A stretch of 32,201 bases of DNA from Candidatus Aenigmatarchaeota archaeon (lineage in GTDB: Archaea; Aenigmatarchaeota; Aenigmatarchaeia; CG10238-14; SpSt-28), in assembly GCA_025058985.1 (NCBI GenBank), contig JANXEB010000044.1, positions 1-32,201 of the forward strand, read 5' to 3'. A program made the translations under genes and the position numbers. Position 1 is the first letter of the stretch. Each line of letters begins with the position of its first letter. Shown here one piece after another: positions 143-29,556 of this stretch. The notes beneath the pieces are model-generated. The model saw nothing but the letters and a program-made list of their open reading frames with translations, made no database searches and was not told the origin of the DNA.

Positions 143-375
143 TGGAGAAAGAATTTGATAAAAAAATAGAAGCTTTAAGAGAGAAGTTAAAAGCTTTAAA
201 AACACTATCAAAAGAAATAGAAGAATTTAAAAGAAGACAAGAAATTTTTGAAAGTAGAGAAATAATAAATAGAATAGAAAGACTAGAAAATGTTATTAAA
301 AATATGCTTTTAATTATGGAGCAATACATAGAAATAATAACTATTTTATATGAAGGATTAGAAGAGTTATATTAA
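142..375 (+). CDS. Small coiled-coil protein (77 aa), unknown function
   Basis: ORF-track ORF with an ATG start. It shares a stop/start overlap with both neighbours (TAATG at 140-144 and at 373-377). The sequence is charged and helical (KIEALREKLKALKTLSKEIEEFKRRQE). I recognise no family. Confidence 0.5.
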   Translation: MEKEFDKKIEALREKLKALKTLSKEIEEFKRRQEIFESREIINRIERLENVIKNMLLIMEQYIEIITILYEGLEELY

Positions 376-1235
376 TGGCCGAAAATAAATTAGTTATAAA
401 AAATTTTTTAATATTTACAATTATTTCAATATATTTTTTAGCTCTCGTTTTTGCTAGAAACGAATTAACTATTCCAATTCAAATAAAAGAAATATCTCAT
501 ACTAAAGAAGTAATAAAAATTGACATAAAAAAATCTAAAGAAATAGAACATTTCATTCCAGGATGTAAAAATTTATGTGGAGATGGGATATGTCAAGAAA
601 TTGTTTGTCTTGCAATAGGATGTCCTTGTCCAGAAACTAGTGAAACTTGTAAAGAAGATTGTAAAGAGTTAAAGGAACTGAAACCAGTTATAACATTACA
701 AACAGATGCTTGTATTAAAATTTCTCCACTTGAAGAAAAACCAATTATTATTGATGAAAAACCAGTTGAATTTAGTGGTATGGAAGAAGTTCCAATTTTA
801 GTTGAGGCAAAATTTACAATTCCATCAAAATTTAATATTACTGAAGAGAAAACTTCTATTAGAATTAGTTTGGATAAAAATAAAAAAATTGCAAATCTTG
901 AAATTAATAATGTTCTAATAACAACAAAAGAAAATTTGAAAATAGAGAATTCTTCTTTAAAAATAGAAACTAAAAAAAGAGATGTTGTAGTAAATATAAC
1001 TCCAGAATTAGCTAAGTATATTATAAATAATAAAGAAAAATTACAAGAAATTAAAAAAATTGAGCTAAAAAAATTTGATGATAAAGTAGTTTATGAAATT
1101 AATGGCTTAAAAAAAGTTAAATTGTTTTGGTTAATTCCAATATTAATAAACATAAAAAGTAACATAAATGTAGAAAATGGTGGAATAGAAAAAATTGAAA
1201 AATCTTGGTGGAGTTTTTTTATAAAAAGTTCATGA
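375..1235 (+). CDS. Membrane-anchored or secreted Cys-rich protein, unknown function
   Basis: 286-aa ORF with an N-terminal hydrophobic anchor (FLIFTIISIYFLALVFA). It has one compact Cys cluster, CKNLCGDGICQEIVCLAIGCPCPETSETCKEDCKE. The remainder is Lys/Ile-rich and looks beta-rich, ending in a WWSFF motif. It is translationally coupled to the upstream small ORFs. Confidence 0.65.
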   Translation: MAENKLVIKNFLIFTIISIYFLALVFARNELTIPIQIKEISHTKEVIKIDIKKSKEIEHFIPGCKNLCGDGICQEIVCLAIGCPCPETSETCKEDCKELKELKPVITLQTDACIKISPLEEKPIIIDEKPVEFSGMEEVPILVEAKFTIPSKFNITEEKTSIRISLDKNKKIANLEINNVLITTKENLKIENSSLKIETKKRDVVVNITPELAKYIINNKEKLQEIKKIELKKFDDKVVYEINGLKKVKLFWLIPILINIKSNINVENGGIEKIEKSWWSFFIKSS

Positions 1236-3832: not shown

Positions 3833-4939
3833 ATGATTATAGTTAATTTTAAAAACTACCTAGAATCTTCTAACAAAAATGGTATAAAGCTTGTTAAAAT
3901 TTGTGAAGAGGTTTCGAAAAAATTTAATGTAGAAATAATTGCTTGTCCAAATTTTATAGATATAAAAGAAATTGTTAAAAAAGCAAAAATAAAAATTTTT
4001 TCCCAACATATAGACCCTATAGAAGATTTTGGAGCATTTACTGGCTCTACTGTTGCAAGCTATTTAAAAAATATTGGTGTAAAAGGAAGTTTAATAAACC
4101 ACTCTGAAAAGCCATTAAAAATTAAAGAAATTAAAAAATGTGTTGAAATATGTAAAAAACTTAACCTAACTTCAGTTGTTTTATCTAGTAAAATAAATCA
4201 AATAAAAAAAATAGTAAAATTTAAACCAAACTATATCGCTTATGAACCAAAAGAACTAATTGGTGGTGATATAAGTGTTTCTACTGCAAAACCAAAGATA
4301 ATAAAAAGAGCTTTTGAAATTTGTAGAAAAGAAAATATTAAGTTACTAGTTGGAGCTGGTATAAAAAATGGTCAAGATGTAAAAAAATCTAGAATATTTG
4401 GAGCTAAAGGAATTTTAGTTTCTAGTGGCGTTGTAAAAGCTAAAAATCCAAAAGTTACACTAGAAGATTTTGCAAGAAATATAAAAATAAAGGGACTTTT
4501 TGTTGGAAGATTTCAACCATTACACTTAGGTCATGTATATGCAATAAACCAGGCTTTTGATCTTTTTGATGAAGTAATAGTTGGTATAGGATCTTCTCAA
4601 TATTCTAATGAACCAAGAAATCCTTTTTCTGCAAAAACTAGAGAAAAAATGATAAAAGCTGTTTTTAAAAACAGAGAAAACTTAAAAATAGTTAAAATTC
4701 CTGATTTTAATAATGACGAAATTTGGACAAATTATTGTTTAAAAAGTTTTGACTTCGATGTTGTTTTTACTGGCTCTAAACATGTTATAAAATGCTTTGA
4801 GGGAAAAAAAGAAATAATAAAGCCTTTGATTTTGAAGCCTAGAAACATTTATAGAGGGACTTTTATTAGAAAATTGATGAAAGAAAATGATGAAAAATGG
4901 AAGGAATTAGTACCGAAAGAAATTATTGGATTATTTTAA
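3833..4939 (+). CDS. tpiA-nadM: Fusion protein: archaeal-type triosephosphate isomerase (about 3833-4480) plus nicotinamide-nucleotide adenylyltransferase (about 4493-4939)
   Basis: The N-terminal half has archaeal TIM motifs: VNFKNY, SQHIDPI, LINHSEK, IAYEPKELIGG, VGAGIKNGQDVKK, VSSGVVKAKNP. The C-terminal half has archaeal NMNAT motifs: GRFQPLHLGHV, IVGIGSSQYS..NPFSA, YRGTFIRKLM, EKWKELVP. It is one uninterrupted 368-aa frame. Confidence 0.85.
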   Translation: MIIVNFKNYLESSNKNGIKLVKICEEVSKKFNVEIIACPNFIDIKEIVKKAKIKIFSQHIDPIEDFGAFTGSTVASYLKNIGVKGSLINHSEKPLKIKEIKKCVEICKKLNLTSVVLSSKINQIKKIVKFKPNYIAYEPKELIGGDISVSTAKPKIIKRAFEICRKENIKLLVGAGIKNGQDVKKSRIFGAKGILVSSGVVKAKNPKVTLEDFARNIKIKGLFVGRFQPLHLGHVYAINQAFDLFDEVIVGIGSSQYSNEPRNPFSAKTREKMIKAVFKNRENLKIVKIPDFNNDEIWTNYCLKSFDFDVVFTGSKHVIKCFEGKKEIIKPLILKPRNIYRGTFIRKLMKENDEKWKELVPKEIIGLF

Positions 4940-7900
4940 TTTTTTTATTAATACAATTTTCTTATTCACAAATTGCAAATTTAATCATCTATCCAACACA
5001 AATTTATGAATGTATCAAATTTAATAGAAGTAGTATATGTAATCTAACTAACATAGTTACGAATGATACCTTATACGAATATCTAGATATAACCGATTCT
5101 TCATCCAGAAAATTTGGTAGAATAAATGTTTCTTTTTTTAACTTATCAATACCACACCACTGGATAAATGTTCTTAGAATTTACATAAAAATGAGATCTG
5201 ACGATTATGAGTTGATGTTTGGACAACATCCTACTCCATTAGGAAATAATGAGAAAGATGAATGCTACATAGCAATTTCTGAAAACTCTACTGGAATATT
5301 TATATACTCCTATGTTCTAACTCCATCATATATAAGTTGTAAAAATTTTTCTAATATAAGTTTGTTCATACAAGAGTTTGAGGTGACTAGCTTTTTAAAC
5401 CACATTAACAAAATAAGAAGTTCGGCAATTTCGTGGAGAGGTTACGATGAAAATGATTTACGAGTAGGTCTTGCTATTGATTTTATCCATATAATAGTTA
5501 ATTATTTCAATTTAACTTTTTCAAATTGGAATTTATCTAAGAGTGAAATCAATAGAGGAGAACTAGTTAATATTCATGCATTATTTAATATAACAGATGT
5601 AAATCATACTTTCTTGATTATAACAACTCCTTTGGGAGAAATTGTTGTTCTAAACAGAAGTTATGCTGGTATAAGTAATATTTCTTTATATCTATATTGG
5701 GTAAACTATACTTTTAATAGCTTTGAAAGAACTTACAAAATAGCTGGAATATATTCTTTTGGTCCTATTTTTGTTAACAACTCATTTGGTGGATACAATG
5801 CAACATTTCCTAAGTTAAACCTAACTCTATGGTCTTTTCCTATGATAGAAAGAATATTTCCAGAAGATTACTATATATACGTAAATGAAAATATAAATAT
5901 CCTTTGTGCTGTTTCAGACAATACAACTTTATATCCATTATCACGACAACCTGTTAGATTTTGGATAGACGGCAGTGCTGATGATTTTAATAGAACAACT
6001 AATGAAAGTGGTATTGCAACTAGAGGATTTCTCTCTTCTTCTGTTGGCAATCGTACAATAGACTGTGAAGTATTTGGAAATATCTCATCTTATTATAAAC
6101 AAAATTTAATATTACGTCAAAACAAATCTTCAACATGGGTTAAAGTTTTAGAACTATCAGCAATTCCAAAGTTAAATAAAACCACAAATATAAAAGTGAG
6201 AGAACCTATAAGAATTTTTGTTAATATTACAAACGCTAGTTTTATAAAAAATGTTAATGCGGCTATAAATTATCTAAAAATAAACTCTTCGGGATCTTTT
6301 AACATAATAGAATTTTATAACTTAACATTTAGTAGAACTTATGCTCCAGACTTACAAGAATATTGTTTAGACTATATTCCTAACTCTTCAGGTCTTTATA
6401 ATGTTTATATAACAACAGAAGCAAATCAACGCACAGCTTTCAATTCTACTTCTTTTTTTGTAGATTTTGGTAGAATAGAAATAGATGTTGAATTCCCAAA
6501 AAACAAACTATTGATAAACCAAACTTTTTTTGCCAAAATTAAGTTTAAAGCTATTGATGGAGATGTTTTAAATATAAATGCAAGCTTAAATAGCAGTAAT
6601 TATAGTAGATTGCAATTAAACAATGATGTTTTTTTCAATAGTTTGTTCAATTTATCTTCTGGAGAAACATTTACTATAAATAAATTTTGGAATCTCACTA
6701 GCAATGATTTCGGATCTGTTTTGCTAAATATAACTGCTATTCCCTCTAATGGAACATATAATTCAACTTCTTTTAATATATCAATTATTGGTTTCGAAAC
6801 TTTTATCTTAAACAAAACCTTAGATTTTGGTAATTCTACAACAATTAAAGCAGTAATAGAGAAAGATTCTAACGCCACTATAATAGAAAATGTATATCTT
6901 ATAACAAAATTTTTTAATATAACTGATTATAATACAATAGAGCTAACAAATCTAAAAATAGATATGCAACATATTGGAATAGAAAGTAATAAATATATTT
7001 TTTCAACTACTTTTATACCACCGAGAAGCGGAAACTATAGTGGAGTAATAAGTTTAAATTTAACTTCAACAATAATAACAAATAGTACAGAAAATTTTAA
7101 TGTAAGTTTTGGTACATCAAAAATATCTTTTCTAATACCATTTTATTATGTATTAACAAACCAAACTTTTAATATAACAGCAATAGCAGAAGCTTTGAAT
7201 GGAGATTTATGGAATGTTAGTTTTAACTTAACAATATTTGATCAAAAAACTATTAATATAACAGAAAATGAAAATTTTTTCCATGGTAAAAATATTTTTA
7301 TAAAAAATGGTAGTAAGTATTTTGAAAAATGGTTAGCTTTCTCTAACAATAGTGGATTGAATAGAATGATTGTTAGTTTAGTTTCTCTATATAGCAACTC
7401 TAGCGCAGATGAAAGTTTTGAAATTATAGAGCCATTAGAAATGGAAATAGAAAATAATCAAACTTATATAGATGAATTTTCAAATCTAATAGTACCTGTT
7501 GTTGGTAATGCAAGTGAAGTTAATGTTAATTTTACAATTTTCAAAGCTTTTGATTCTGGAGTAGAATCATTCCTTGCAAAAACAGTTACAATTAAAAATG
7601 TTATAGACTGCAATATAGAAATAGAAACTGGTAATGTTGCTTTGTTAGAAAAAGGATCTAGTGCTTTTTCACTTGGTGGAAGTAATGCAAATTTTTCCAT
7701 AGATAATAACAATAATACAGCATGGATAACATTTTCAAAAGATTATCTTATTGTTAATTTAAGAAGTATATTTCCAGTAGGAAAAATAGAACTATTATGG
7801 TTTGGTCCATCAAATAGCTTTGCTAATATAAGTTATATAAATGAGAACAATGAAATAATAATTCTTGAAAAAAATATTTTAATACCAACTTCATTATCAA

Positions 7901-15045: not shown

Positions 15046-15345
15046 ACTATCTACAGGGGGTGCAGGTGGTCTGACCGGAAGCATCTCTAAGTACGAAAGG
15101 AACGGAGATGCGGCACCTCTGGTGTACCGGCTGTTAATTGCATGCCGGGTAGCCACGTGCTTATGGATAAGTCCTGAAGGCATCTAAGGACGAAGCCATC
15201 CGGGAAAATAGACCACCGTCTTCTTACTACTGGCAACAGTAGTAAGAGGAGAAGAGCTGCTATAGACGATGGCGTTGATGGGGTGGTGGTGTACGTGTGG
15301 AGGTTTCGACCAACACACTTAGCCTACCACTCCCAATCGCTCAAT

Positions 15346-15382
15346 CACTAGACCCTTATAGTCAAATAACCCTATGACATCT
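15346..15382 (+). repeat. 3' strand of the 23S rRNA processing stem
   Basis: Perfect complement of 12005-12024 and 12030-12041 (see the 5' strand feature). Confidence 0.85.
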
Positions 15383-16004: not shown

Positions 16005-16832
16005 ATGGCAGAAAGAAAACCAATTGATGAGTTTGTCTTTATATTAATGGCTGGTTTAGTTTTAATATCCATAATAATTGTTTATCAATATTCTCAAAAC
16101 CAAACAACTAATAACGTAACAAATTTAACAATAGCTAGAAACATTAAGATTTTTAATTTTGGGGATTTTGAGATATCTTACCAAATAGGAACCGAAAATA
16201 TAATAAAAAAAGAAAATATTAGAATTGAAAAAAGTATATTTTCAGAAAACTTCGTTGGTTATAGTTTCGAAATAAGCTCCGATAAATTAAAAATATTGCA
16301 AGCATCCAACCTTGAAGTTTCTGTGCATTCTACGAGTAAAAATGGTAAAATAATAATTAAAATAAATGGAAATGAAGCTGTTAATGAAGTTTTAGATAGC
16401 GGTACATACTTGTTTGAAGTATCTAAGTCTTTTTTACAAGAAAAAAATAAGATAGAAATATTGGTAGAAAAACTTCCGACATGGAAATTTTGGCAACCTG
16501 CCTTTTACGAAATATCGTTTAAATTTTATATAAACTATGCTGGCCAATCTTTTAAAGATTTTTCATTTACGCTAGAAGAAGATGATTTGAAAAAGTTTGA
16601 AAATGCCTTCATATCATTTAAAACTAGCGAAGAATCAGTAAAAAACGGAAAAGTGACTATCAGATTGAATGGTGGAAAAATATATAGTGATATACCACCA
16701 CTTCTAACAAACATAACAATAGACTTTGTTGGTAAGTTTAATAAAGGTAAAAATAAATTAGAATTTTCAACAGAACCAGGATCGGTTTATAAAATCGAAA
16801 ATTTAATAATAGTAATTAGTAAAAGGAGATAA
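16005..16832 (+). CDS. N-terminally anchored extracellular protein with an internal duplication, unknown function
   Basis: 275 aa with a TM segment (FVFILMAGLVLISIIIVY) and no Cys. It has two similar halves: SKNGKIIIKINGNEA...EKNKIEILVE and VKNGKVTIRLNGGKI...GKNKLEFSTE. It is convergent with the 935-aa gene, with a 7-nt gap. Confidence 0.6.
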   Translation: MAERKPIDEFVFILMAGLVLISIIIVYQYSQNQTTNNVTNLTIARNIKIFNFGDFEISYQIGTENIIKKENIRIEKSIFSENFVGYSFEISSDKLKILQASNLEVSVHSTSKNGKIIIKINGNEAVNEVLDSGTYLFEVSKSFLQEKNKIEILVEKLPTWKFWQPAFYEISFKFYINYAGQSFKDFSFTLEEDDLKKFENAFISFKTSEESVKNGKVTIRLNGGKIYSDIPPLLTNITIDFVGKFNKGKNKLEFSTEPGSVYKIENLIIVISKRR

Positions 16833-16839
16833 TATCTTT

Positions 16840-19647
16840 TTAGAATTGATTATTCGGCCATAAATCAGCACCTCCGAACCACCAACCACAAGCTTCTGCA
16901 GATGCGCCCATAACAAACAAAGTTATTGTACTACCAATTCCACCAGTAAGTAGTGTTAAAAATACTGGACCAACTAGACCCATAAGTTGACAAAAGCTTT
17001 TAGCTCTAGCCTCAATTTTATCTCCGTAAGGAATGCAATAATTTCTTGCGATTTGCAGATCATCTTTTAAACCTGGTATTTTCATTTCTTCAAAATATTT
17101 TTTCATAGATTCCTGATCCACATCTATAATTATCTGCTGTGCAGGACTATCTGTAGAGCCTAGAAGACTTGCTATTCCTGTCCATCCGGAAGAAGTACAC
17201 TCTGAAACAATAGTCTCCATACCATTGCTTAATACTTTGTAATTTATAGGTTCTATTTTATATGTTCCGTTAATCAATCCCCTTATAAAATCTTCTCTAT
17301 CTTTTATTTTACATTTATCTACTAATACTCTATACATACACTCCAATATACTTTTATCTTCTAGGCATTCGTTGTAACCTACTGAGTTTTCACAAATAGT
17401 AATATACGTTGTGATTTCTTCATTTTCAATGTACTGTATTTCCTTTTCTTTAACTTTAAAATACAATTTATCAGATTGATAAAACTTATCGCATTTAATG
17501 ATACTATCCTTAGTTTTTTTCACAATCAAATCTGTTTTACATGGAGAAACTAACCAAGCTCTACTATATGTATCCCTTAGTCCAAATGCTTCCATCTTTT
17601 CTAGCATTACCGTAACAAAAGAATTGCTAGGATTCTCTAAAGATATGTTAAACATATTATTCACTATCGAAGATGAAACATATAAGCACATTGAGTTTCC
17701 ACCACATCCATTATAAGGTTCTTCGTATGAGTTTGCTAAAAGTGAATAAATGGCGTCTATAGCTATAGCTGCAATGATGTAATCCGCGTAACAAATACCC
17801 TGCTTCCATTTACTCCATTCGTAACCACAAGTTATAATTCCAGAAGGAAATCCTAAAGGTATTCCTTCTACCGCTCCCAGAGTAGCTGCCGATACTCCGC
17901 TTATGTAATATTTCAACGTGCCGAAATATTGTTTTTCAAAAACATTTTCACCCACCTTTTCAATTGTTTCGTCAGCCCATTCCTTAAACGTAGTCCAAAA
18001 ACTCTTACCTATTTCTTCATAGTATTCTTTCATAGTTATTTCTCCAGACTCCTCCATAAACTTAAAGTTAAAAATTGTTCTTTTGACATTAAGATCTACA
18101 AATTCTTCTATTAATTTCTTAATTCTTTTAGCTTCTTTTTCAGGCATTTTCGATAAAACTTTTTCCAAGCTTGTTAATGTGCCTTTCTCATCAAGCAAGC
18201 TTTTAATAACCTTCTTGTTAAGGAACCAGCTAGCAAATTTTTTAAAATCTTCACTCTTCACAGCCGACTTTATTCTTTCTTTTACTATAGTCTTTTCTTT
18301 TTCTTCCAGTAAATTAAGTTTTACAACTCTTTTAGCTATGCTATTGTCTCCTGTTCTTTTAAAATCTGCCGCTAATTCGTTTTTAAGCTCCTTGGCAAAT
18401 GAAGCTAAATCATTATATCTTGGTTTTCCATCAACTATTTTAATTCCTCTAATCATAGATTCGGCAAACGCTTTTCTTGTTGTCTCATATCTTATTAAAG
18501 CATCTTCTGGTATAGATCCTACAATAACAGAAATTATTTCGTCTTCTGAAATTTTTTCTATATGACCGCCTTTATTTTTTATCAAATCATAAATCCCTCC
18601 TATTATTCTTTTTTCTATTGTTTCTGGTTGCATGGATTGATGCAGATAAACCATTGTTTTTATTTCCCTTTCTTCAAACAACTCTATTAATTTATCTACA
18701 ATAGCTTTCTCAACTATTTCGTCAACAGGACCTGTGTTTTTTATGGCAGAAATGAGTGCGAGATTCAAAAAATTTCTAGGAAGAAAACCCCTAGCTAAGG
18801 TTTTTAAGACTTCTTTCCACGCCTTTGGACTAAAAGCCATTTTGGGATTCAGAACGATTTTTTTCGTAGTATACCAAACAGATTTTAAGCCAGCCTTACT
18901 AATCGGTATGACATTTGTTACACCTCCCATTGCTATACTTGCAACTACCCATTCTAAGGGTTCATCTCTATTGCTCCACCAGTCCTCTGTTTTTGGTTCT
19001 AGCTTCTCGAACATAACAATATACTTTGGATGTTGAAAAGCTCTTATAAAACAGTTATACCAAAAAACCGGAGTAATTCCTATAGACGGTACACACCACT
19101 CAGTTGTTTTAATGTAAGTTTCTAAAAGAAAAGTCGAAAACATATTTATTACGGGAACTCTTATTATTGTTTCTGAAGTTATAGCTAATAAAAGTTTATC
19201 AAAAAACCAAACGCCAGTAGCGATTGATGGTTTTTGTAGTAGAGTAAAGCCAATTACCTTACATTTCATTTCCTTTTTATTACATTCTACGTTAACAACA
19301 TCTTTATAAATACTGGAACATCTATAATAAACCGTATTACCATTACTACCTATTTTTTCACAAGAAACCATAGAAAAATTTGGTAATAGTTTATACTCTC
19401 TCTCTACCTCTAGTTCCTCAAAGGTTATTTTTTTATAACATGTACTGACAGTTTCTTTTTCCGTCGAAACGAAATCTATAGCACAACTCAAAGCAGCTGT
19501 AGAAGTTAGTGCATAAGCGGTGTCTCTATCTATCGGATATGGTATCATCGGTATTTGTATTCTTAACGCAAGTAAAACAAGGTAAGAAAATATAGCGACG
19601 GTTATAATTCCAATAATTAAGTATACGAGATATGTAACAGTTGGCAT
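16840..19647 (-). CDS. Large (935 aa) polytopic membrane protein; last gene of the orphan operon
   Basis: Long ORF with an N-terminal TM (YLVYLIIGIITVAIFSYLVLLAL). By eye it has 22 Cys, confined to the N-terminal about 210 aa and the C-terminal about 330 aa. The central region of about 370 aa is Cys-free and Lys/Glu-rich. Hydrophobic segments flank that central region, and there is a C-terminal Gly-rich TM (LVGPVFLTLLTGGIGSTITLFVMGA). I recognise no family. Confidence 0.8.
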   Translation of the reverse strand: MPTVTYLVYLIIGIITVAIFSYLVLLALRIQIPMIPYPIDRDTAYALTSTAALSCAIDFVSTEKETVSTCYKKITFEELEVEREYKLLPNFSMVSCEKIGSNGNTVYYRCSSIYKDVVNVECNKKEMKCKVIGFTLLQKPSIATGVWFFDKLLLAITSETIIRVPVINMFSTFLLETYIKTTEWCVPSIGITPVFWYNCFIRAFQHPKYIVMFEKLEPKTEDWWSNRDEPLEWVVASIAMGGVTNVIPISKAGLKSVWYTTKKIVLNPKMAFSPKAWKEVLKTLARGFLPRNFLNLALISAIKNTGPVDEIVEKAIVDKLIELFEEREIKTMVYLHQSMQPETIEKRIIGGIYDLIKNKGGHIEKISEDEIISVIVGSIPEDALIRYETTRKAFAESMIRGIKIVDGKPRYNDLASFAKELKNELAADFKRTGDNSIAKRVVKLNLLEEKEKTIVKERIKSAVKSEDFKKFASWFLNKKVIKSLLDEKGTLTSLEKVLSKMPEKEAKRIKKLIEEFVDLNVKRTIFNFKFMEESGEITMKEYYEEIGKSFWTTFKEWADETIEKVGENVFEKQYFGTLKYYISGVSAATLGAVEGIPLGFPSGIITCGYEWSKWKQGICYADYIIAAIAIDAIYSLLANSYEEPYNGCGGNSMCLYVSSSIVNNMFNISLENPSNSFVTVMLEKMEAFGLRDTYSRAWLVSPCKTDLIVKKTKDSIIKCDKFYQSDKLYFKVKEKEIQYIENEEITTYITICENSVGYNECLEDKSILECMYRVLVDKCKIKDREDFIRGLINGTYKIEPINYKVLSNGMETIVSECTSSGWTGIASLLGSTDSPAQQIIIDVDQESMKKYFEEMKIPGLKDDLQIARNYCIPYGDKIEARAKSFCQLMGLVGPVFLTLLTGGIGSTITLFVMGASAEACGWWFGGADLWPNNQF

Positions 19648-19674
19648 ATAAATTTATTTTATTTTTAAAAAATA

Positions 19675-20580
19675 TTAGCAGTTGTAATTGTTTTCAATTC
19701 CTTTGGTAATAAAAAGCATTAGCGGAATACCTCTTGCCGATGATGTAGCCACAAACCTTAGAGAAGAACTTATTGAGGAGATCACGCAATCTTTACTTGA
19801 ACAATATCTGTAACATACTTCCTCTCCTTCTGGTGTCGTATAGCATGACGTTCTATAATAGTATTTTTCATAAAAAGTTACTCTAACATCAACAAACATA
19901 TCTTTAACCTCCACAAATGAATTTTTATTGCTATTCAATTTTGCTATTTCCTTAATCTTTTCTCTCATAGCTCTCTCTATCATGGTTTTTGCGTTAGAAT
20001 GGGGACAAGTATCTCTACATGAAAGTCCAGTATAAGTATATCTAAGGTAAAGAGTGCATATATTTTTCATTTCATAGTCTATCAAATCCAAAACTTTATA
20101 GAAAATATCTTTATAGACAAAATATTTTTCTTCTATACAAGCATTTAGATTAAACTTTTTTGTTATAGTTGGATTTTCAATATTAATTTCCAAACTAGAA
20201 GTACTGATACAAATGTCATTATTTTTTTCTTTATTTATTTTGTCTACTTTTACAGGTAATCCCGATAATTTAATCCTACTTTTTTCACTAAGCTTTACTA
20301 CATAATCATTTAAATAAATTTGTAATTTATTTTTGAAATCTTCGTATTGATTTGATCTTAATCTATAATAGTTAAAATCGGAATCATTCCACGCTCTTAT
20401 AGTTGATAAATGTAAGGATGCTTTCATAGACTTGTAAACACTCTCTATCATAAAAACTTTTTTCAAATTTTCGAAAACTATTAAATTGCTCCTATACATG
20501 TGATTTTGAAAAATTATTAAAGAAAAATAAATAGATAATACAACAAACAAAACTAAGAAAAACACTATCCAACTTTTCAT
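19675..20580 (-). CDS. N-terminally anchored Cys-rich protein (301 aa), operon gene 4
   Basis: The ORF track starts at 20607. The ATG at 20580 (MKSWIVFFLVLFVVLSIYF) gives a classic ATGA stop/start overlap with the upstream gene. It has 10 Cys, including TSCYTTPEGEEVCYRYCSSKDC. I recognise no family. Confidence 0.7.
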   Translation of the reverse strand: MKSWIVFFLVLFVVLSIYFSLIIFQNHMYRSNLIVFENLKKVFMIESVYKSMKASLHLSTIRAWNDSDFNYYRLRSNQYEDFKNKLQIYLNDYVVKLSEKSRIKLSGLPVKVDKINKEKNNDICISTSSLEINIENPTITKKFNLNACIEEKYFVYKDIFYKVLDLIDYEMKNICTLYLRYTYTGLSCRDTCPHSNAKTMIERAMREKIKEIAKLNSNKNSFVEVKDMFVDVRVTFYEKYYYRTSCYTTPEGEEVCYRYCSSKDCVISSISSSLRFVATSSARGIPLMLFITKGIENNYNC

Positions 20581-21155
20581 GGCATACGAACCAATGTTAA
20601 TTTCCAATCAGACGGTTGTAGAACAACATTAGTAAAAGCAAAAATCATACTACTCACTTCACCATTGAAAAGTGGGAAGAATATTATGTATCTCTCTATA
20701 ATGCTTTCTGTTTTACATTCCTTATACTCACTTATGTATTCGCCCTCACCAAAATTTATTCTTGCACAGACCAGAAGTGGCAGATTATTAGCAAAGTATT
20801 TTTTGAACAGACGAGAAAAAATGTTATCTTTTTTAATCCGATAATCATAGCTTGCAACGTAAATATATGGAACTTCTGCTTTACACGTGCAAACCTCTTT
20901 TTCACCAAAAACCTGACAATTTGAACTACAATAGCTTTCTTTTTCCTGTCCTCTATAGTATTCCTCTTTCCACTCGTATTCTATAGCTAGTGATAGAAAA
21001 AGTTCTGGAATGTTGTTGAAAGATATGTACTCGAACAAATCTAAATAAAAACTCTCCATTCTATACCTAAAGAATGTCAAGAAAGTAATTGTAATTATCA
21101 ATACTACCACTATCACTACGATACTTAACTTTTCCAAAAGAAATATTCCTTTCAT
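20577..21155 (-). CDS. N-terminally anchored Cys-rich protein (192 aa) with a prepilin-like N-terminus, operon gene 3
   Basis: It starts MKG-IFLLE-KLSIVVIVVVLIITITF, that is Gly followed by a hydrophobic segment with Glu at +5. It has 6 Cys (SYCSSNCQVFGEKEVCTC...). Its start forms an ATGA overlap with gene 2. Confidence 0.7.
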   Translation of the reverse strand: MKGIFLLEKLSIVVIVVVLIITITFLTFFRYRMESFYLDLFEYISFNNIPELFLSLAIEYEWKEEYYRGQEKESYCSSNCQVFGEKEVCTCKAEVPYIYVASYDYRIKKDNIFSRLFKKYFANNLPLLVCARINFGEGEYISEYKECKTESIIERYIIFFPLFNGEVSSMIFAFTNVVLQPSDWKLTLVRMP

Positions 21156-21877
21156 TTTTTAGGAACCTTCACAAATATTTTTTTCTCTGTTTTAAGAAAA
21201 TTAACTATTATCTCACTACATTCTTGAACCGCGTCGTACTTAATTATTTCTAACTTCAAACCACAATCTGTATAAGTTTGACATACGTTGTTTAAACAAA
21301 CTTTACCTTTGCCTATGCTAAGACTACGAAAGTCATTCAGCAATATTTTTATCCTCTTCTCGAACGATAAAGTCGATAAACAAGAATATGTTAAATAATA
21401 AGCTAACTGAGACAATGGTGTAACTAATGAAATTATTCTAACTCTAATTGGCTTGCAAAAAAATTCTTTTTCACAAATAGCGACATAACTTTCGAACATT
21501 GATTTCTTCAACATACCAGAATCGATATAACAAGAATTTTCCTTAAAAGCTTGAGTAATAAATGGGCCATCAAAGTTTGCTATATATCTGTTAACAGATT
21601 CGTTAGAAAAATTCACTACATAATTCAATTCATAGCTTTCTATTTTTTCTATTTCTCTATCGTTCCACTCATTGAAAAAACTCCTAGAAATTAACAGTCT
21701 ATCAATTAAGAAATTAGAAGAAGATATATAAGAATTTAATATAGAATAAGTTAGCAAAAATTGTTTAGAACTTACTATCTCAACTCTTAATTTAAAAAAA
21801 TTTCCACTAACTACTAGAAGCAATGCTACGACAATAGCCATTAAAAATACCCAAATCAAAATATCTCCTAACTCCAT
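21152..21877 (-). CDS. N-terminally anchored Cys-rich protein (241 aa), operon gene 2
   Basis: It starts MELGDILIWVFLMAIVVALLLVV. It has 8 Cys, including KVCLNNVCQTYTDC. It overlaps gene 1 by 10 nt. Confidence 0.7.
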   Translation of the reverse strand: MELGDILIWVFLMAIVVALLLVVSGNFFKLRVEIVSSKQFLLTYSILNSYISSSNFLIDRLLISRSFFNEWNDREIEKIESYELNYVVNFSNESVNRYIANFDGPFITQAFKENSCYIDSGMLKKSMFESYVAICEKEFFCKPIRVRIISLVTPLSQLAYYLTYSCLSTLSFEKRIKILLNDFRSLSIGKGKVCLNNVCQTYTDCGLKLEIIKYDAVQECSEIIVNFLKTEKKIFVKVPKK

Positions 21878-22251
21878 TTTTTTTCGATTAAAAAAACTAT
21901 TTCATTAGCACTCTCCTTTATTCGTACATTTAGTCGCTTTATTGGTATTGTTAAACAATCCTCGGTAGTTACTACAAACTGAGAATTTATACATAACATT
22001 GGAAAAAAATGGCTTACAGTATATTTAACATTTCCAGTATTTTCTATCCTATACTCATAATTAAAATTTGTCCTATAAAAAAGCGAAGAATATATCAATG
22101 ATAATAAAGTAGTTGTCTGCATATCACTAAACCTTAAGCCCAATATGTTGGAAATTTCCCCAGCAATTTGCATAGTTGTCATGATTATAACCAAGGTCAT
22201 TATTGTAAGGAAAATTAAGACAAATAGCTTTTTTGCTGCAAATTCTCCCAT
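21868..22251 (-). CDS. N-terminally anchored small protein (127 aa), operon gene 1
   Basis: It starts MGEFAAKKLFVLIFLTIMTLVIIMTT. It has 2 Cys. It is the first ORF after a 64-nt divergent spacer shared with the recombinase gene. Confidence 0.6.
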   Translation of the reverse strand: MGEFAAKKLFVLIFLTIMTLVIIMTTMQIAGEISNILGLRFSDMQTTTLLSLIYSSLFYRTNFNYEYRIENTGNVKYTVSHFFPMLCINSQFVVTTEDCLTIPIKRLNVRIKESANEIVFLIEKKWS

Positions 22252-22315
22252 AATTTTATTTACACAGAAAGAAAAATATTTAGTAAAATAAATTTTTTTT
22301 ATCTAAAAATATGTT

Positions 22316-23212
22316 GTGTTAGAAAAATTTGAAAGTTTTAGAAATTTATGCGGTGAAATAGATTTATTAACAAGAAGTGAAAACACAAAAAAAACTTATG
22401 AAAAAGGTTTAATGGCTTTCATGAAAATTTTTGAAATAGATGACCTGGACAAATTTATAAATAAAGTTAGAAATGGTGAAATAATACCAAATGAAGTATA
22501 TAAACAGTTTCTTCTAAACCTAGCGAAAAAACAAACAGCTCCAAAAACTATATTAACTTGGTCTTCCGCTTTAAAAAAATTCTTTGAAGCAAATTCTATA
22601 AAAATAGATGAAAAAATAAGAATTAAAGTTTTTAATATTCATGAAGATCACCTTATCTCAAAAGAAGAACTTAGGTTTATTGTTAACAATGTTAATATAA
22701 GAACACAATCTATTATTCTAATTTTATCTTCTTCTGGTTTAAGAATAGACGAACTTAGAAATTTAAAAATAGGAGATGTTGATTTGAAATCAGAACCAGC
22801 AGTAATAAAAGTTAGAGGAAGTTTAGCAAAAGAAAGAAAACCAAGAGTAACCTTCATTTCAAAACAAGCAAAAGAAGTTTTGCTAAAATATTTAAGTACT
22901 AGAAAAAATGTAGACAATGATTCTTATCTAATTACAAGCAGGGAAGAAAAACAATTAAGCTATTCACAAATTCAATACATAATTAACAAAGCTTTTAAAC
23001 TAATTGCAAAAAAAGAAGGTAAAAGATATAACTTACATGCACATGTTTTAAGAAAGTTTTTTAAAACCAACATGATAGCTGCAGGTGTACCTGCTCCAAT
23101 AGTCGATAGATTAATGGGACATAAAAGATACCTTAGTGAAGAATATGAACTCTATACTTTTGATCAATTAAAAGAATGGTACTTAAAAGGAGAAGCAAAT
23201 TTAACATTATGA
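22316..23212 (+). CDS. Tyrosine recombinase / integrase (XerA-like)
   Basis: 298 aa with a GTG start. It has an N-terminal SAM-like core-binding domain (TKKTYEKGLMAFMK). The catalytic-domain pattern is SSGLRIDELRNLKIGDV ... HAHVLRKFF ... LMGHKRYLSEEYELY, matching R...HxxR...Y. Confidence 0.8.
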   Translation: MLEKFESFRNLCGEIDLLTRSENTKKTYEKGLMAFMKIFEIDDLDKFINKVRNGEIIPNEVYKQFLLNLAKKQTAPKTILTWSSALKKFFEANSIKIDEKIRIKVFNIHEDHLISKEELRFIVNNVNIRTQSIILILSSSGLRIDELRNLKIGDVDLKSEPAVIKVRGSLAKERKPRVTFISKQAKEVLLKYLSTRKNVDNDSYLITSREEKQLSYSQIQYIINKAFKLIAKKEGKRYNLHAHVLRKFFKTNMIAAGVPAPIVDRLMGHKRYLSEEYELYTFDQLKEWYLKGEANLTL

Positions 23213-23412
23213 GGAGAAAAAGAAGAATAAGTTTATTTTCAAGAATGATTTCTATGCTACTAGTAATAGTTGGCTTTTCTTTAATAACAGTAGTAGTATT
23301 TTTACACTCCTCAACAATAGAAGAAATCGAACTGAAAATAAAAATTTTATCAGTAATAGTTGGTAGCTTATATATAATGTTCTCTCTGCTTATTTTTAAA
23401 CAACAACAATAG
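23209..23412 (+). CDS. Small two-TM membrane protein (67 aa), hypothetical
   Basis: The ATG at 23209 forms an ATGA overlap with the recombinase stop. The sequence is MRRKRRISLFSRMISMLLVIVGFSLITVVVF...VIVGSLYIMFSLLIF. Its 3' end overlaps the leuS 3' end by 17 nt. Confidence 0.35.
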   Translation: MRRKRRISLFSRMISMLLVIVGFSLITVVVFLHSSTIEEIELKIKILSVIVGSLYIMFSLLIFKQQQ

Positions 23413-26091: not shown

Positions 26092-26586
26092 ATGGTAAAA
26101 TGTCCAGTTTGCGGAAGTGAAAATGTAATAAATAATACTATTGATTATAGTGAAAAATTCTTTAAAAAAATTTTGATAAGCACAATAGTTTGTAATTCTT
26201 GTGGTTTTAAACACTCTGATATTTTAACGGAAGAAAAAGGAGAAAGCGTAGAAATAAATTTTTTTGTAGAAGAAAAAGAAGATTTAAATATCTTAGTAGT
26301 AAAATCTTCTAAATGTTCTATCGAAATTCCAGAAATAGGATTAGAAATAACTCCTGGTCCTTATAGTGAAGGATATATTACAACTATTGAAGGAATTTTA
26401 GAAAGAATTGAAAATTTTCTATACGAGCATATGCACTTATTCGAGCAAGAAAAAGTCAAAAAAATAATGGAAAAAATAAAAGAGATGAGAAATGGTAATT
26501 TAAAATTTCATTTAATATTAAAAGATAGCTCTGGTATTTCGAAAATATTTTCAAAAAAAGCTAAAGAACTAAAAAACACAAAATAA
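26092..26586 (+). CDS. ZPR1-type zinc-finger protein
   Basis: 164 aa. The CPVCG...(x26)...CNSCGF C4 finger is followed by VVKSSKCSIEIPEIGLEITPG...GYITTIEGILERI, the pattern of the ZPR1 zinc-finger plus A domain (archaeal COG1779). Confidence 0.6.
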   Translation: MVKCPVCGSENVINNTIDYSEKFFKKILISTIVCNSCGFKHSDILTEEKGESVEINFFVEEKEDLNILVVKSSKCSIEIPEIGLEITPGPYSEGYITTIEGILERIENFLYEHMHLFEQEKVKKIMEKIKEMRNGNLKFHLILKDSSGISKIFSKKAKELKNTK

Positions 26587-27161
26587 TTTATTAAAATTAA
26601 TAAAGGTATTAAAAAAATTTTTTCGAAAGTAGTTCTTGTAATGAGAGAGGAAAAAAATAACAAGTTAATAGAGCTTATCGAAGAAACTAAAAACAAAACT
26701 AATACATCTGTTTGAACAAAAATAGAAATGAAAAAAAATGAAAGTGGGAAAACGAAAAAAGAAAAAGCAGTCATCCATCTAGCAAGGCTCTTCAACTCGT
26801 TTTTAAACTTCACCTCCTCTTCGTATACCTTTTTAAAATACTCGACTTCAGAAAAAACTTTTGACATTTGTAAACCAAATTTTAAAGCTTCTAAAATCAA
26901 TATACAACTATTTTTAATAGCTTTTGACATACTATTGATACTAACAAAACTTACATATTCATCAAAACTTTTAAAATTTGATGAAATTTTTCTAAAAGAA
27001 GTTTCTAGTGCTATTCCCTCTTTTAGAGCATTGTTCAAAACATAACAAGTTTCAAAAAAATCTTTCTCAATCTTTTCTTTTTTTATTCTTTTATTCCTTA
27101 AAGTAAAAAAGATCAGAAAAGAAAGTAAAGATAAAATTATTAGAAAAACTTTTTCAATCAT
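26508..27161 (-). CDS. Polytopic membrane protein, TadC/FlaJ-like (T2SS-F domain); tentative
   Basis: 217 aa. It has an N-terminal TM, a helical soluble segment of about 100 aa, then three hydrophobic helices. It has an ATGA overlap with the upstream paralogue-like gene. The call rests on architecture rather than motifs. Confidence 0.45.
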   Translation of the reverse strand: MIEKVFLIILSLLSFLIFFTLRNKRIKKEKIEKDFFETCYVLNNALKEGIALETSFRKISSNFKSFDEYVSFVSINSMSKAIKNSCILILEALKFGLQMSKVFSEVEYFKKVYEEEVKFKNELKSLARWMTAFSFFVFPLSFFFISIFVQTDVLVLFLVSSISSINLLFFSSLITRTTFEKIFLIPLLILINYFVFFSSLAFFENIFEIPELSFNIK

Positions 27162-27679
27162 TTTTTAAAATAATAAAACATCATTATACATTCTGTCAAA
27201 AAAATTGCGAACAAGAAAAAATATAAAAAACTTTCATCGAGCTTTATTCCTATGTTTAAAAACTCTAAGCTATGAAGCACTGAAAGAAATGTATAGAAAA
27301 CAAAAGCAACAATAGGAAGAATAATTGAAAAAATTATGAAAAAAGTAGCAAAAGACTTTGAAAATTCTATCCTGTTCTTTCTTTCATTCAGATCTTCCTC
27401 GCTAAACTTCTCTACTATTAAATCCAAATTCTCTCCCAAAGTTTCTAATTCCAATCCTTCGTAAATTTTTTCGAGACAATATTTAGTTCTTTCGTTCTTT
27501 TCCTTCTCAATTGCCTCTTTTATTGCTTCTTTCATAGGCTTATTTGACTTTGCTATAGAAGAAAAAATTGATTTTGGATATTTTTCACTAACAATTTTTA
27601 AAGATTGCTCAAAAGATATACCATTTATCAAAAAACTTCTTATCAACCTAATTTCGTTCAGCAAATCTTCAAACCTCAC
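27158..27679 (-). CDS. Membrane protein, TadB/FlaJ-like (T2SS-F domain); tentative
   Basis: 173 aa with a GTG start. It has a helical soluble N-domain of about 115 aa (LINGISFEQSLKIVSEKYPKSIFSSIAKS...) followed by two TM helices. It is translationally coupled to 26508..27161. Confidence 0.45.
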   Translation of the reverse strand: MRFEDLLNEIRLIRSFLINGISFEQSLKIVSEKYPKSIFSSIAKSNKPMKEAIKEAIEKEKNERTKYCLEKIYEGLELETLGENLDLIVEKFSEEDLNERKNRIEFSKSFATFFIIFSIILPIVAFVFYTFLSVLHSLEFLNIGIKLDESFLYFFLFAIFLTECIMMFYYFKK

Positions 27680-28104: not shown

Positions 28105-28196
28105 GGGCCCGTAGCTCAGTGGTAGAGCGGCCGCCTTATATGGCAACTGAGCTATGAGAAAGCGGTAGGTCAAGGGTTCAAATCCCTTCGGGCCCA
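28105..28196 (+). tRNA. tRNA-Ile (anticodon UAU) with a 20-nt intron
   Basis: The fold is GGGCCCG TA GCTC AGTGGTA GAGC G GCCGC CT-TAT-A [tggcaactgagctatgagaa] A GCGGT AGGTC AAGGG TTCAAAT CCCTT CGGGCCC A. The anticodon is at 28137-28139. The mature length is 72 nt. It is a GC-rich island, and CCA is not encoded. Confidence 0.85.
28141..28160 (+). other. tRNA intron at the canonical 37/38 position
   Basis: 20 extra nt lie between the anticodon-loop A37 and A38. The exact cut sites are ambiguous by 1-2 nt because of flanking A residues. Confidence 0.7.
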
Positions 28197-28558: not shown

Positions 28559-28795
28559 ATGGAAAATGAAAATTTAAAAATATTAAAATTAGATAAAAAA
28601 GGTGCCAAAAACACTTCTTTTATATTTGGATGTGAAGATAAGATTTTCTCGATTAGCGAAAAAATAATACCATACAAAAACACTAAAAAAATGAGAAAAA
28701 GAAACTATTTTTTTATATTAGAACGCAGAGAAAACTCAAGTTTAATTATAGATGAAGATATAGAATTTTTTGAAAAGTGTTCGAAATTGTTGTAG
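28559..28795 (+). CDS. Hypothetical protein (78 aa)
   Basis: ATG-start ORF directly upstream of the prepilin peptidase gene, overlapping it by 19 nt. I recognise no motifs. Confidence 0.3.
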   Translation: MENENLKILKLDKKGAKNTSFIFGCEDKIFSISEKIIPYKNTKKMRKRNYFFILERRENSSLIIDEDIEFFEKCSKLL

Positions 28796-29556
28796 GAGTT
28801 TCACTTTTCATTGCATCAATCTATGATTTAAAAACAACTGAAATACCAGATGAAATTCCGATATTTTTAATATCGCTTGGTATTTTTTTAGTAGTTTTTG
28901 ATTTAATTCTTTTTAAAGACTTATCAAAACTAACAAATACGATAATTGTAGGTCTTGTTTTTTCTGTTTTTTGTATTTTAATGTATTATGGTGGTCATTG
29001 GGGAGCTGGAGATTCGGCACTATTAGCTTCTATAGCATTTTTATACCCTAATTTTTCATTTCTTTTCAAGTACTTGATAAACCTAATAATTTTTGGTTCT
29101 TTTTTTATGGTAGCTTTTTCAGTAGTTTTTTGTTATCTTTACTCAAAAAAGGTTTTTAAAAAATTTTCTATAGAGCAAAAAAAACTTAAATACTTATACA
29201 TTTCTTTGCTCCTATTAGGATTAGTCTCTTTTATAATATTAAAAAATAAATTTTTATTGATTTACTCAATCGTCTTAACTCTTGCTATAATGACAATAAA
29301 TTTTTGCATAATTGTAGAAAAATACGGATTTAAAAAAAGAATAAGAGTAGATAAATTGAAAGTTGGTGATGTTTTAGTTAGTTTTAAAAGATGGAGAGGA
29401 ATAACGGAAAAAGAAATAGAAGCAATAAAAAAGAGTGGAAAAACTTTTGTTACTATAAAAGAAGGTGTTAGATTTGCTCCAGCTTTTCTAATAGCTTATC
29501 TTTATACAATATTAACAAACGAAGCTATTTTGTTTAACTATTTAATAGTATGGTAA
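28777..29556 (+). CDS. A24-family prepilin/preflagellin peptidase (FlaK/PibD/EppA-like)
   Basis: 259 aa, polytopic, GTG start. The first catalytic Asp context is SIYDLKTTEIPDE. The second is the GxGD motif (HWGAGDSALLASI). There is a C-terminal soluble extension, as in FlaK. Confidence 0.7.
   Translation: MFEIVVGVSLFIASIYDLKTTEIPDEIPIFLISLGIFLVVFDLILFKDLSKLTNTIIVGLVFSVFCILMYYGGHWGAGDSALLASIAFLYPNFSFLFKYLINLIIFGSFFMVAFSVVFCYLYSKKVFKKFSIEQKKLKYLYISLLLLGLVSFIILKNKFLLIYSIVLTLAIMTINFCIIVEKYGFKKRIRVDKLKVGDVLVSFKRWRGITEKEIEAIKKSGKTFVTIKEGVRFAPAFLIAYLYTILTNEAILFNYLIVW

Follow-up and report, generated by a model that had tools for sequence, protein, structure and literature searches.

What is encoded by a run of five consecutive genes whose products fall into no recognised family, in the genome of a tiny hot-spring archaeon of the Aenigmarchaeota? 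The question is posed by contig JANXEB010000044.1 of assembly GCA_025058985.1 (Candidatus Aenigmatarchaeota archaeon), analysed from position 1 to 32,201 and here called the window, whose minus strand carries, between positions 16840 and 22251, five genes (g1 to g5) for cysteine (Cys)-rich, membrane-anchored proteins. For DPANN archaea, the Aenigmarchaeota among them, a dependence on physical contact with hosts is assumed, and the surface machinery for such contact appears in their genomes mostly as 'hypothetical protein'. An initial annotation of the DNA had proposed that the block encodes an orphan, undescribed multi-subunit surface structure, whether pilus-like, pore-like or an attachment complex. 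The present analysis points to a more specific answer, namely that g1-g5 likely belong to a type IV filament (TFF) machine, similar to Tad and Epd pili, of a small set of archaea, as an accessory sub-module that has become detached. Homologues of g5, g1 and g2 are found in other genomes inside same-strand clusters with a secretion ATPase, a platform protein and tiny pilin-like proteins, and the window operon is thus read as a rearranged, detached accessory part of such a TFF cluster.

The five open reading frames (ORFs) are present exactly where the initial annotation had placed them, and their products measure 127 (g1, 21868-22251), 241 (g2, 21152-21877), 192 (g3, 20577-21155), 301 (g4, 19675-20580) and 935 (g5, 16840-19647) amino acids (aa). 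The length of g4 is counted from the ATG at 20580 and matches the NCBI-annotated product; the longest form of this ORF, with a TTG start, spans 19675-20607 (310 aa). The tight coupling that had been described is borne out by the ORF coordinates: g1 and g2 overlap by 10 nucleotides (nt), g2 and g3 by 4 nt (ATGA), g3 and g4 by a further 4 nt (ATGA) if g4 starts at 20580, and a gap of 27 nt separates g4 from g5. Between g1 and a divergent recombinase gene lies an AT-rich intergenic region of 64 bp (22252-22315), the presumed promoter region of the operon. The window itself is archaeal, with a 23S rRNA, Trm56, aminoacyl-tRNA synthetases and a guanine-plus-cytosine (GC) content of ~25%. The proteins contain 2, 8, 6, 10 and 22 Cys (g1 to g5), or 1.6-3.3% of their residues, compared to ~1.2% for most other proteins of the window; the even counts noted earlier are exact, and all ten counts across the two Aenigmarchaeota genomes discussed below are even. 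Each protein also has the N-terminal helix ascribed to it, seen as a strong hydrophobic segment in the first ~35 residues (Kyte-Doolittle 19-residue maxima of 2.6-3.2), but the five helices are not equivalent, and a prepilin-type (class III) start precedes the helix only in g3 and g4. No significant match to g1-g5 was found in Pfam, NCBIfam or PHROGs, and with the PDB included the five proteins stand outside every curated family checked, as the initial annotation had suspected. Paralogy within g1-g4 was not detectable.

The same block occurs in a second Aenigmarchaeota metagenome-assembled genome (MAG). Among 5.8 billion proteins searched, g5 had a single close homologue, 53% identical, in this other MAG, whose contigs L001-L004 represent one organism (BLAST, 100% identity over 6.8 kb). 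The order is that of the window, with the recombinase gene followed by genes for proteins of 127, 237, 192, 282 and 941 aa, and the amino-acid identities of g1-g5 are 47-61%, g1 being 61% identical to its orthologue on L002; the conservation of gene order that the initial annotation had proposed to look for across DPANN genomes is seen in this pair. At the DNA level the homology covers exactly 16838-23406 of the window, with unrelated sequence on either side. Nearly all Cys are kept (2/2 in g1, 8/8 in g2, 5/6 in g3 and 22/22 in g5, and 6/6 of the orthologue's Cys are matched in g4), and such near-perfect conservation implies structural cysteines in real proteins. Judged from the sequences, the Cys of g1-g5 are conserved in the manner of structural disulfides, and the five genes are real and conserved. 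A word-indexed homologue search with g4 returned g4 alone, and one with the g5 family alignment returned two close members only, its prefilter being swamped by K/E-rich low-complexity words. A pattern-based search with the close-pair g5 alignment found only the known sister genome among GTDB representatives, and nothing in JGI metagenomes or IMG/VR.

More distant relatives were reached through g5. A complete HMMER search of 1.84 billion cluster representatives with a profile of the g5 pair yielded 14 of them (E 1e-27 to 7.5e-4), and clustering at 50% identity leaves only ~15 clusters for the whole family in a set of 15 billion proteins. By profile comparison, then, g5 is the founding member of a rare protein family, mostly of 900-1190 aa. 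Conserved motifs run along the full length (ALxCAID, FxLPQ, GEPxYxVYYETFP, AIGG, TCGGNSLCLH, SPCKxD and NYC), and most members end in a WPxxQ[FY] tail. Hydropathy and the positions of the Cys outline a shared layout: an N-terminal transmembrane (TM) segment, a Cys-rich external domain and a moderately hydrophobic segment at AIGG are followed by a K/E-rich helical region of 270-370 residues, a hydrophobic segment preceded by K/R, a second, beta-rich, Cys-rich domain and one or two C-terminal TM segments. The Cys are confined to the two predicted external regions, the middle region having 0-2 compared to 21-39 overall, and this Cys-free helical middle is probably cytoplasmic.

Structural models were made for g5 only. 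AlphaFold2 with a two-sequence alignment gave an unusable model (predicted local distance difference test, pLDDT, of 33), whereas a 15-sequence alignment raised the mean pLDDT to 59, and three domains (40-140, 310-470 and 640-860) were modelled with confidence. The first of these presents a helix and a four-stranded sheet straight after the TM helix, in a pilin-like order (helices at 3-29 and 41-62, four strands at 92-136, pLDDT 84-93), while the second is helical and the third beta-rich. Searches of PDB sequences with profiles from the 2- and 15-sequence alignments gave coiled-coil noise only, and a Pfam search of 15 family members gave no match, including to the PilY1/PilC propeller. The N-terminal helix of g5 is similar to the one in the small class III proteins described below (HHalign 92.6%, over only 28 TM residues). 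A KG motif stands before this helix in 4/13 family members, the window g5 not among them.

The size of g5, its C-terminal TM segment and its many conserved Cys would also suit an S-layer-like or cell-wall sheath protein, for which g1-g4 could serve as anchoring or export helpers; C-terminally anchored, Cys-containing proteins of arCOG05471 do recur in type IV pilus (T4P) loci (PMC4858521). We regard this explanation as very improbable, given that an N-terminal TM segment and a long Cys-free, K/E-rich helical middle are atypical for an S-layer protein, that the family is extremely rare, and that no S-layer family was matched.

The genomic surroundings of the distant g5 relatives carry most of the argument. 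Seven such loci were retrieved (L006, L008, L009, L010, L011, L012 and L013), which neighbouring genes for Alba, RNase P p29, aIF-2B, form III RuBisCO and Hef/XPF identify as archaeal chromosomes. In 4/7 (L006, L008, L010 and L013) the g5 homologue belongs to a same-strand cluster that includes an ATPase and is separated from its immediate neighbours by gaps of less than ~150 nt. Upstream of it lie a T2SSE ATPase of 726-745 aa, a polytopic protein of 614-649 aa and two to three ORFs of 47-78 aa. The ATPase matches the TadA (7.6e-36) and FlaI (7.4e-33) models, and its solved relatives are afGspE (2OAP, 2e-26), CpaF (1.5e-18) and FlaI (3e-13). Against Pfam T2SSF, the polytopic protein of L010 scores 26.8 bits, above the cut-off of 25.2, and that of L013 17.8 bits, below it. 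The ORFs of 47-78 aa look like pilins of the Flp/Epd type, devoid of a globular domain, and tiny TM ORFs stand directly upstream of the g5 homologue in all seven loci. Downstream of the g5 homologue, most of the loci encode small Cys-rich proteins with class III-type 'KG/IA..' starts (a slash marks the predicted cleavage site), and further downstream in the ATPase-bearing clusters comes a four-gene series consisting of a g1 homologue, a g2 homologue and, in the positions of g3 and g4, proteins with class III starts. L009, L011 and L012 have no adjacent ATPase, yet tiny ORFs and class III-type small proteins flank their g5 homologues. The idea of an orphan, free-standing apparatus, as first put forward, is not supported, given these distant homologues of g5, g2 and g1 inside TFF-type clusters; of the initial proposal, a conserved, operon-like block of membrane-anchored proteins stands, and of its pilus-like, pore-like and attachment options the pilus-like one is favoured.

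The distant loci offer further observations of their own. Divergent from the ATPase gene are two to three conserved coiled-coil proteins of ~130, 230 and 265 aa (L006 3074-5043, L008 2740-4734, L010 3133-4119 and L013 1571-3608), two with weak FlaC_arch matches (E ~3e-3) and one with a conserved 'GFSEPEMIDVLRRDGFSPEEIDKAL' motif. A regulatory or stator role in the cytoplasm is possible for them in this TFF type, and no counterpart was seen in the window. In L013 a ParE-toxin pair (79 and 87 aa, 6788-7301) is inserted between the ATPase and platform genes. The g5-homologue clusters are rich in disulfide-type proteins overall, and very Cys-rich neighbours of the g5 homologue are encoded in L009 (14716-16635, minus strand, 639 aa, 46 Cys), L010 (13252-14835, plus strand, 527 aa, 40 Cys) and L012 (9448-10623, plus strand, 391 aa, 26 Cys), one of the three having a weak match to the WAP 'four-disulfide core'. 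A set of minus-strand genes in L011 (157, 358, 239 and 1014 aa) was considered as the n1-n4 series on the basis of similarity by eye, which profiles did not confirm.

How closely the four smaller proteins of the window correspond to the series in the distant clusters was assessed by profile comparison, and in the HHalign matrix of window genes against cluster positions the diagonal gives the best match in every row. The correspondence is clear for g1, which matches its positional counterparts with 87% probability (E 3.9e-6) and is recovered among 296 ORFs at E 3.8e-5 by a profile built from the distant loci alone. On these profile matches g1 is a bitopic member of the n1 family of the distant pilus-type clusters, with a predicted N-terminal anchor helix and 2 conserved Cys. 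The best conserved small subunit is g2, a bitopic protein in which an acidic N-terminus and an anchor helix are joined to an 8-Cys domain with a conserved TPLSQLAY motif, and profile comparison shows it to be homologous to its distant-cluster counterparts. The starts of the remaining two are of another kind: g3, with 6 Cys, begins with MKG/IFLLE and shares a Glu at +5 with its orthologue, and g4 begins with MKS/W (MKG/W in the orthologue) and has 10 Cys. Across the clusters, [KR][G/S] directly precedes the hydrophobic helix in 5/5 proteins at the g3 position and 5/5 at the g4 position, and a class III start appears in 0/6 members of the g1 family and 0/6 of the g2 family, although the [KR][GAS]-plus-hydrophobic pattern is short and these counts have no background control. 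The motif makes g3 a candidate minor pilin and g4 a candidate minor pilin or pseudopilin, while g1, g2 and g5 would be uncleaved anchor or scaffold components and not pilins.

Some of the machinery that such proteins would need is encoded in the window itself. The prepilin peptidase and TadB/C-like genes to which the initial annotation had drawn attention are confirmed by an A24 class III signal (prepilin) peptidase gene at 28777-29556 on the plus strand (PF01478, 33.7 bits against a cut-off of 26.5, with a weak match to NCBIfam FlaK_Arch) and by a TadC/T2SSF-like platform gene of 173 aa at 27158-27679 on the minus strand (PF00482, 26.1 bits against a cut-off of 25.2). The latter lies outside the g1-g5 operon, 7.5 kb from the start of g5 and 4.9 kb from that of g1. 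It is overlapped by 4 nt by a second polytopic membrane gene (26508-27161, minus strand, 217 aa) with no family match, possibly a second platform gene, which would give a two-platform layout; two platform genes have been described as typical of TFF system 1/4A in DPANN (bioRxiv 10.64898/2026.04.22.720090). The two polytopic genes and the peptidase gene lie 4.3-7.3 kb from the start of g1, and the link that had been drawn between them and the operon is reasonable, the peptidase being the candidate processing enzyme for g3 and g4.

Several results nonetheless weigh against placing the block in a filament machine, the shortness of the class III pattern among them. The ATPase is not adjacent in 5/9 contexts (L009, L011, L012, the window and L001), and a secretion ATPase, tiny pilin ORFs and small 'KG/IA' pilins are all absent from the 32-kb window and the 29-kb sister contig. 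The platform genes of the window (173 and 217 aa) may be of another TFF subtype than the 614-649-aa platform of the clusters. The match of g3 to its positional counterparts is weak (HHalign 33%, E 4.6e-4; E 0.011 with a profile from the distant loci only), and homology of g4 to its counterparts is undetectable (HHalign 21%, no match with the distant-only profile), so that its assignment to the g4 position is positional only. Pilin-type families are absent among the Pfam and NCBIfam matches of g1-g5 even at E <= 1. The initial annotation had suggested AlphaFold models followed by Foldseek, and for the g5 model Foldseek returned no match at E <= 1e-3 in the PDB or BFVD. The second and third TM segments of g5 are only moderately hydrophobic, which makes the cytoplasmic placement of its middle domain uncertain.

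Much of this would also be expected if the five genes encoded an autonomous envelope complex, that is, a self-contained, disulfide-rich pore, anchor or host-contact structure at the surface or across the membrane, which needs no type IV filament motor and whose adjacency to TFF genes in some genomes would reflect co-regulation of surface structures rather than a physical partnership. Besides the contexts devoid of an adjacent ATPase and the lack of matches to any known pilus family or fold, such a complex would suit the absence of class III motifs from g1, g2 and g5 in the window, as well as the architecture of g5, which is polytopic with C-terminal TM segments, unlike a filament subunit. Yet four independent distant loci unite homologues of g5, g1 and g2 with an ATPase, a platform protein and tiny pilins on one strand, the ATPase-less loci still keep tiny pilin-like ORFs and class III-type small proteins beside the g5 homologue, and the window combines prepilin-type starts in g3 and g4 with a peptidase gene. 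An autonomous complex therefore retains a small but appreciable probability, because over half of the contexts have no adjacent ATPase, and it becomes the less likely account because of the recurrent same-strand linkage and the prepilin-type starts.

The recombinase gene beside g1 raises a further alternative, in which the recombinase, the five membrane proteins and a 78-aa TM ORF constitute a 6.6-kb integrative element or provirus, with Cys-rich proteins serving a virion or transfer. The tyrosine recombinase (22316-23212, plus strand; Pfam Phage_integrase, 1.3e-25) is indeed immediately upstream and divergent, the homology between the two genomes ends exactly at the limits of the block with unrelated flanks, and GC is slightly raised over the block (0.28-0.33 compared to ~0.25). 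The differing flanks are, however, weak evidence, since L001-L004 come from one organism and there are only two independent contexts. The ends of the block bear no att-like direct repeats, the recombinase is its only PHROGs match, and it contains no gene for replication, capsid or a transfer ATPase; relatives are absent from IMG/VR viral contigs, as are fold matches from BFVD, and a recombinase lies beside the cluster in 0/7 distant loci. The recombinase is a conserved divergent neighbour of the block in both Aenigmarchaeota genomes and is 84% identical between them, far more conserved than the five genes, as expected of a housekeeping gene. Its best solved relatives are XerA (5HXY, 1.6e-18, and 4A8E), and its score against NCBIfam XerA_Arch is 132.7 bits (cut-off 220). 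It looks like a housekeeping XerA and is probably outside the functional module. The element or provirus was rejected, with L001 and L002 being overlapping contigs of one organism, att repeats missing and phage families lacking, and we give it hardly any probability. The TM ORF (23176-23412, plus strand, 78 aa; 65 aa in the sister, L002 2803-3000) has two TM segments and 51% identity between the genomes; it overlaps the 3' end of the XerA-like gene and is conserved in the syntenic block.

Returning to the accessory sub-module of a filament machine, the fuller clusters differ from the window in that g5 has here moved behind g4 and the module stands alone in both Aenigmarchaeota genomes. The best reading of the profile matches is that at least g1, g2 and g5 belong to a detached piece of a rare pilus-type cluster. 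A working scheme can be outlined as follows. The motifs at their N-termini suggest that g3 and g4 are synthesised in a prepilin-like form, with three-residue leaders (MKG and MKS) which would be cleaved by the A24 peptidase encoded 6.5 kb away, after which the two proteins may act as minor pilins or pseudopilins in priming, capping or decorating a filament. Family membership and a conserved position in the clusters suggest that g1 and g2 would keep uncleaved N-terminal anchors, and their disulfide-stabilised external domains might contribute to a membrane-proximal assembly or anchoring complex. From its predicted layout, g5 could link the external parts with the ATPase/platform motor or serve as an anchor for the filament base; alternatively it may act as a membrane-tethered adhesin. 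The module would presumably work with machinery genes located elsewhere; of these, the window supplies the TadC-like pair and the peptidase but no ATPase. The output is most likely a surface filament for adhesion, possibly to a host.

Several described systems share parts of this arrangement. The clade 4 systems of the Thermoproteales (Makarova, Koonin & Albers 2016, PMC4858521) are archaeal T4P loci in which several minor pilins rich in Cys accompany one or two large accessory proteins. They resemble the present genes in a run of small, N-anchored, conserved-Cys proteins with a large protein bearing a C-terminal TM segment, in thermophilic hosts and, as far as the fuller clusters are concerned, in a linked secretion ATPase and TadC-like platform. 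In contrast to those loci, g1-g5 have no detectable relation to curated pilin or accessory families, g5 has in addition a helix at its N-terminus and a long helical middle region free of Cys, the window module is detached from the ATPase, and the hosts are Aenigmarchaeota and other archaea. The full clusters share with Tad/Flp and archaeal Epd pili an ATPase of the TadA/CpaF/FlaI/afGspE type, a T2SSF-type platform and pilin-like ORFs of 47-78 aa, and the larger pilin-like proteins with an N-terminal helix that follow the tiny pilins are arranged analogously to TadE/F/G. However, no match to TadE, TadF, TadG or Flp was obtained, the cluster ATPase, at 726-745 aa, is much longer, nothing in Tad systems corresponds to g1, g2 or g5, and the components of the Epd locus are not recognisable. 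An analogy, and only that, may also be drawn to the bacterial fimU-pilVWXY1E operon, in which four small pilin-like proteins are likewise followed in a compact operon by a protein of ~1000 aa. This minor-pilin operon is thought to prime and tip the filament. Its large component differs from g5, which matches neither PilY1/PilC nor a beta-propeller and is anchored at both ends, and g1 and g2 have no prepilin motifs. A further parallel is the 'dark matter' islands of DPANN genomes (Makarova, Wolf & Koonin 2019, PMC6393860, Fig. 2A), in which orphan signal-peptide or TM proteins beside FlaI and TadC genes were read as divergent pilins; the line of reasoning is the one followed here, and so is the kind of locus, with orphan proteins beside recognisable TFF core genes, but whereas all such proteins were called 'pilins' there, g1, g2 and g5 do not resemble cleavable pilins.

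What is already known is therefore the kind of system, a type IV filament machinery, together with the view of DPANN orphan islands as divergent pilus parts (PMC6393860). T4P genes in Aenigmarchaeota have been reported only from MAGs of thermal habitats (PMC8407114). New are the g1, g2 and g5 families, for which there is no curated model, their predicted uncleaved status, the architecture of g5 and the detached arrangement in Aenigmarchaeota. Five orphan genes become testable parts of a pilus-type system: three very rare protein families (g1, g2 and g5) are defined which travel with a Tad/FlaI-type motor, and the likely cleavable minor pilins, g3 and g4, are told apart from the uncleaved anchor or scaffold components. 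Models for TFF detection, for example those for MacSyFinder by Sivabalasarma & Albers 2026, could be extended by the three families. Should g5 indeed connect a domain in the cytoplasm with two disulfide-rich domains outside the cell, no accessory component described from archaeal TFF systems would be its counterpart, and it would be a candidate for filament anchoring or host attachment. A bolder version, which we consider unlikely, would make the g1-g2-g5 core and the prepilin-like g3 and g4 an unrecognised trans-membrane module added to a Tad/Epd-like motor by a small group of ultra-small, probably host-dependent archaea. There g5 would be a new stator, anchor or host-contact device, for example coupling the motor to a host attachment or cell-cell bridge, and in Aenigmarchaeota it would perhaps operate free of a dedicated ATPase.

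The window holds several other features. Convergent to g5 is a gene at 16005-16832 (plus strand) for a 275-aa N-anchored protein that has no Cys, is probably beta-rich and gives weak FlgD Ig-like matches (Pfam E 0.11; NCBIfam E 0.0034); it is not conserved beside the module in the sister genome. A further candidate Cys-rich surface protein, N-anchored and of 286 aa, is encoded at 375-1235 (plus strand) and has a dense Cys patch (CKNLCGDGICQEIVCLAIGCPCPETSETCKEDC) but no family match. The protein that the initial annotation had labelled giant adhesin-like (4897-10629, plus strand, 1910 aa) combines a Sec-like N-terminus with a C-terminal TM segment and a basic coiled-coil tail; it has 23 Cys and no Pfam match. 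One ORF at 3833-4939 (plus strand) contains both a triosephosphate isomerase domain (residues 1-205) and a cytidylyltransferase-like domain (222-293), which is an unusual fusion unless a stop or frameshift was overlooked. At 12031-15356 (plus strand) the match to archaeal 23S rRNA has no adjacent 16S or 5S gene and measures 3326 nt compared to 2987 nt in the model, the ~340 nt extra representing insertions or a small intron; an rRNA of ~50% GC in a genome of ~25% GC is consistent with a thermophile. At 28105-28196 (plus strand) ARAGORN predicted a 'tRNA-Stop (tta)', whereas the Rfam covariance alignment places a C-U-UAU-A anticodon loop with a 20-21-nt insertion at the canonical site, 37/38, which identifies the gene as an intron-containing tRNA-Ile(UAU) that reads AUA and not as a suppressor. 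Some small archaeal genomes use tRNA-Ile(UAU) in place of the agmatidine system.

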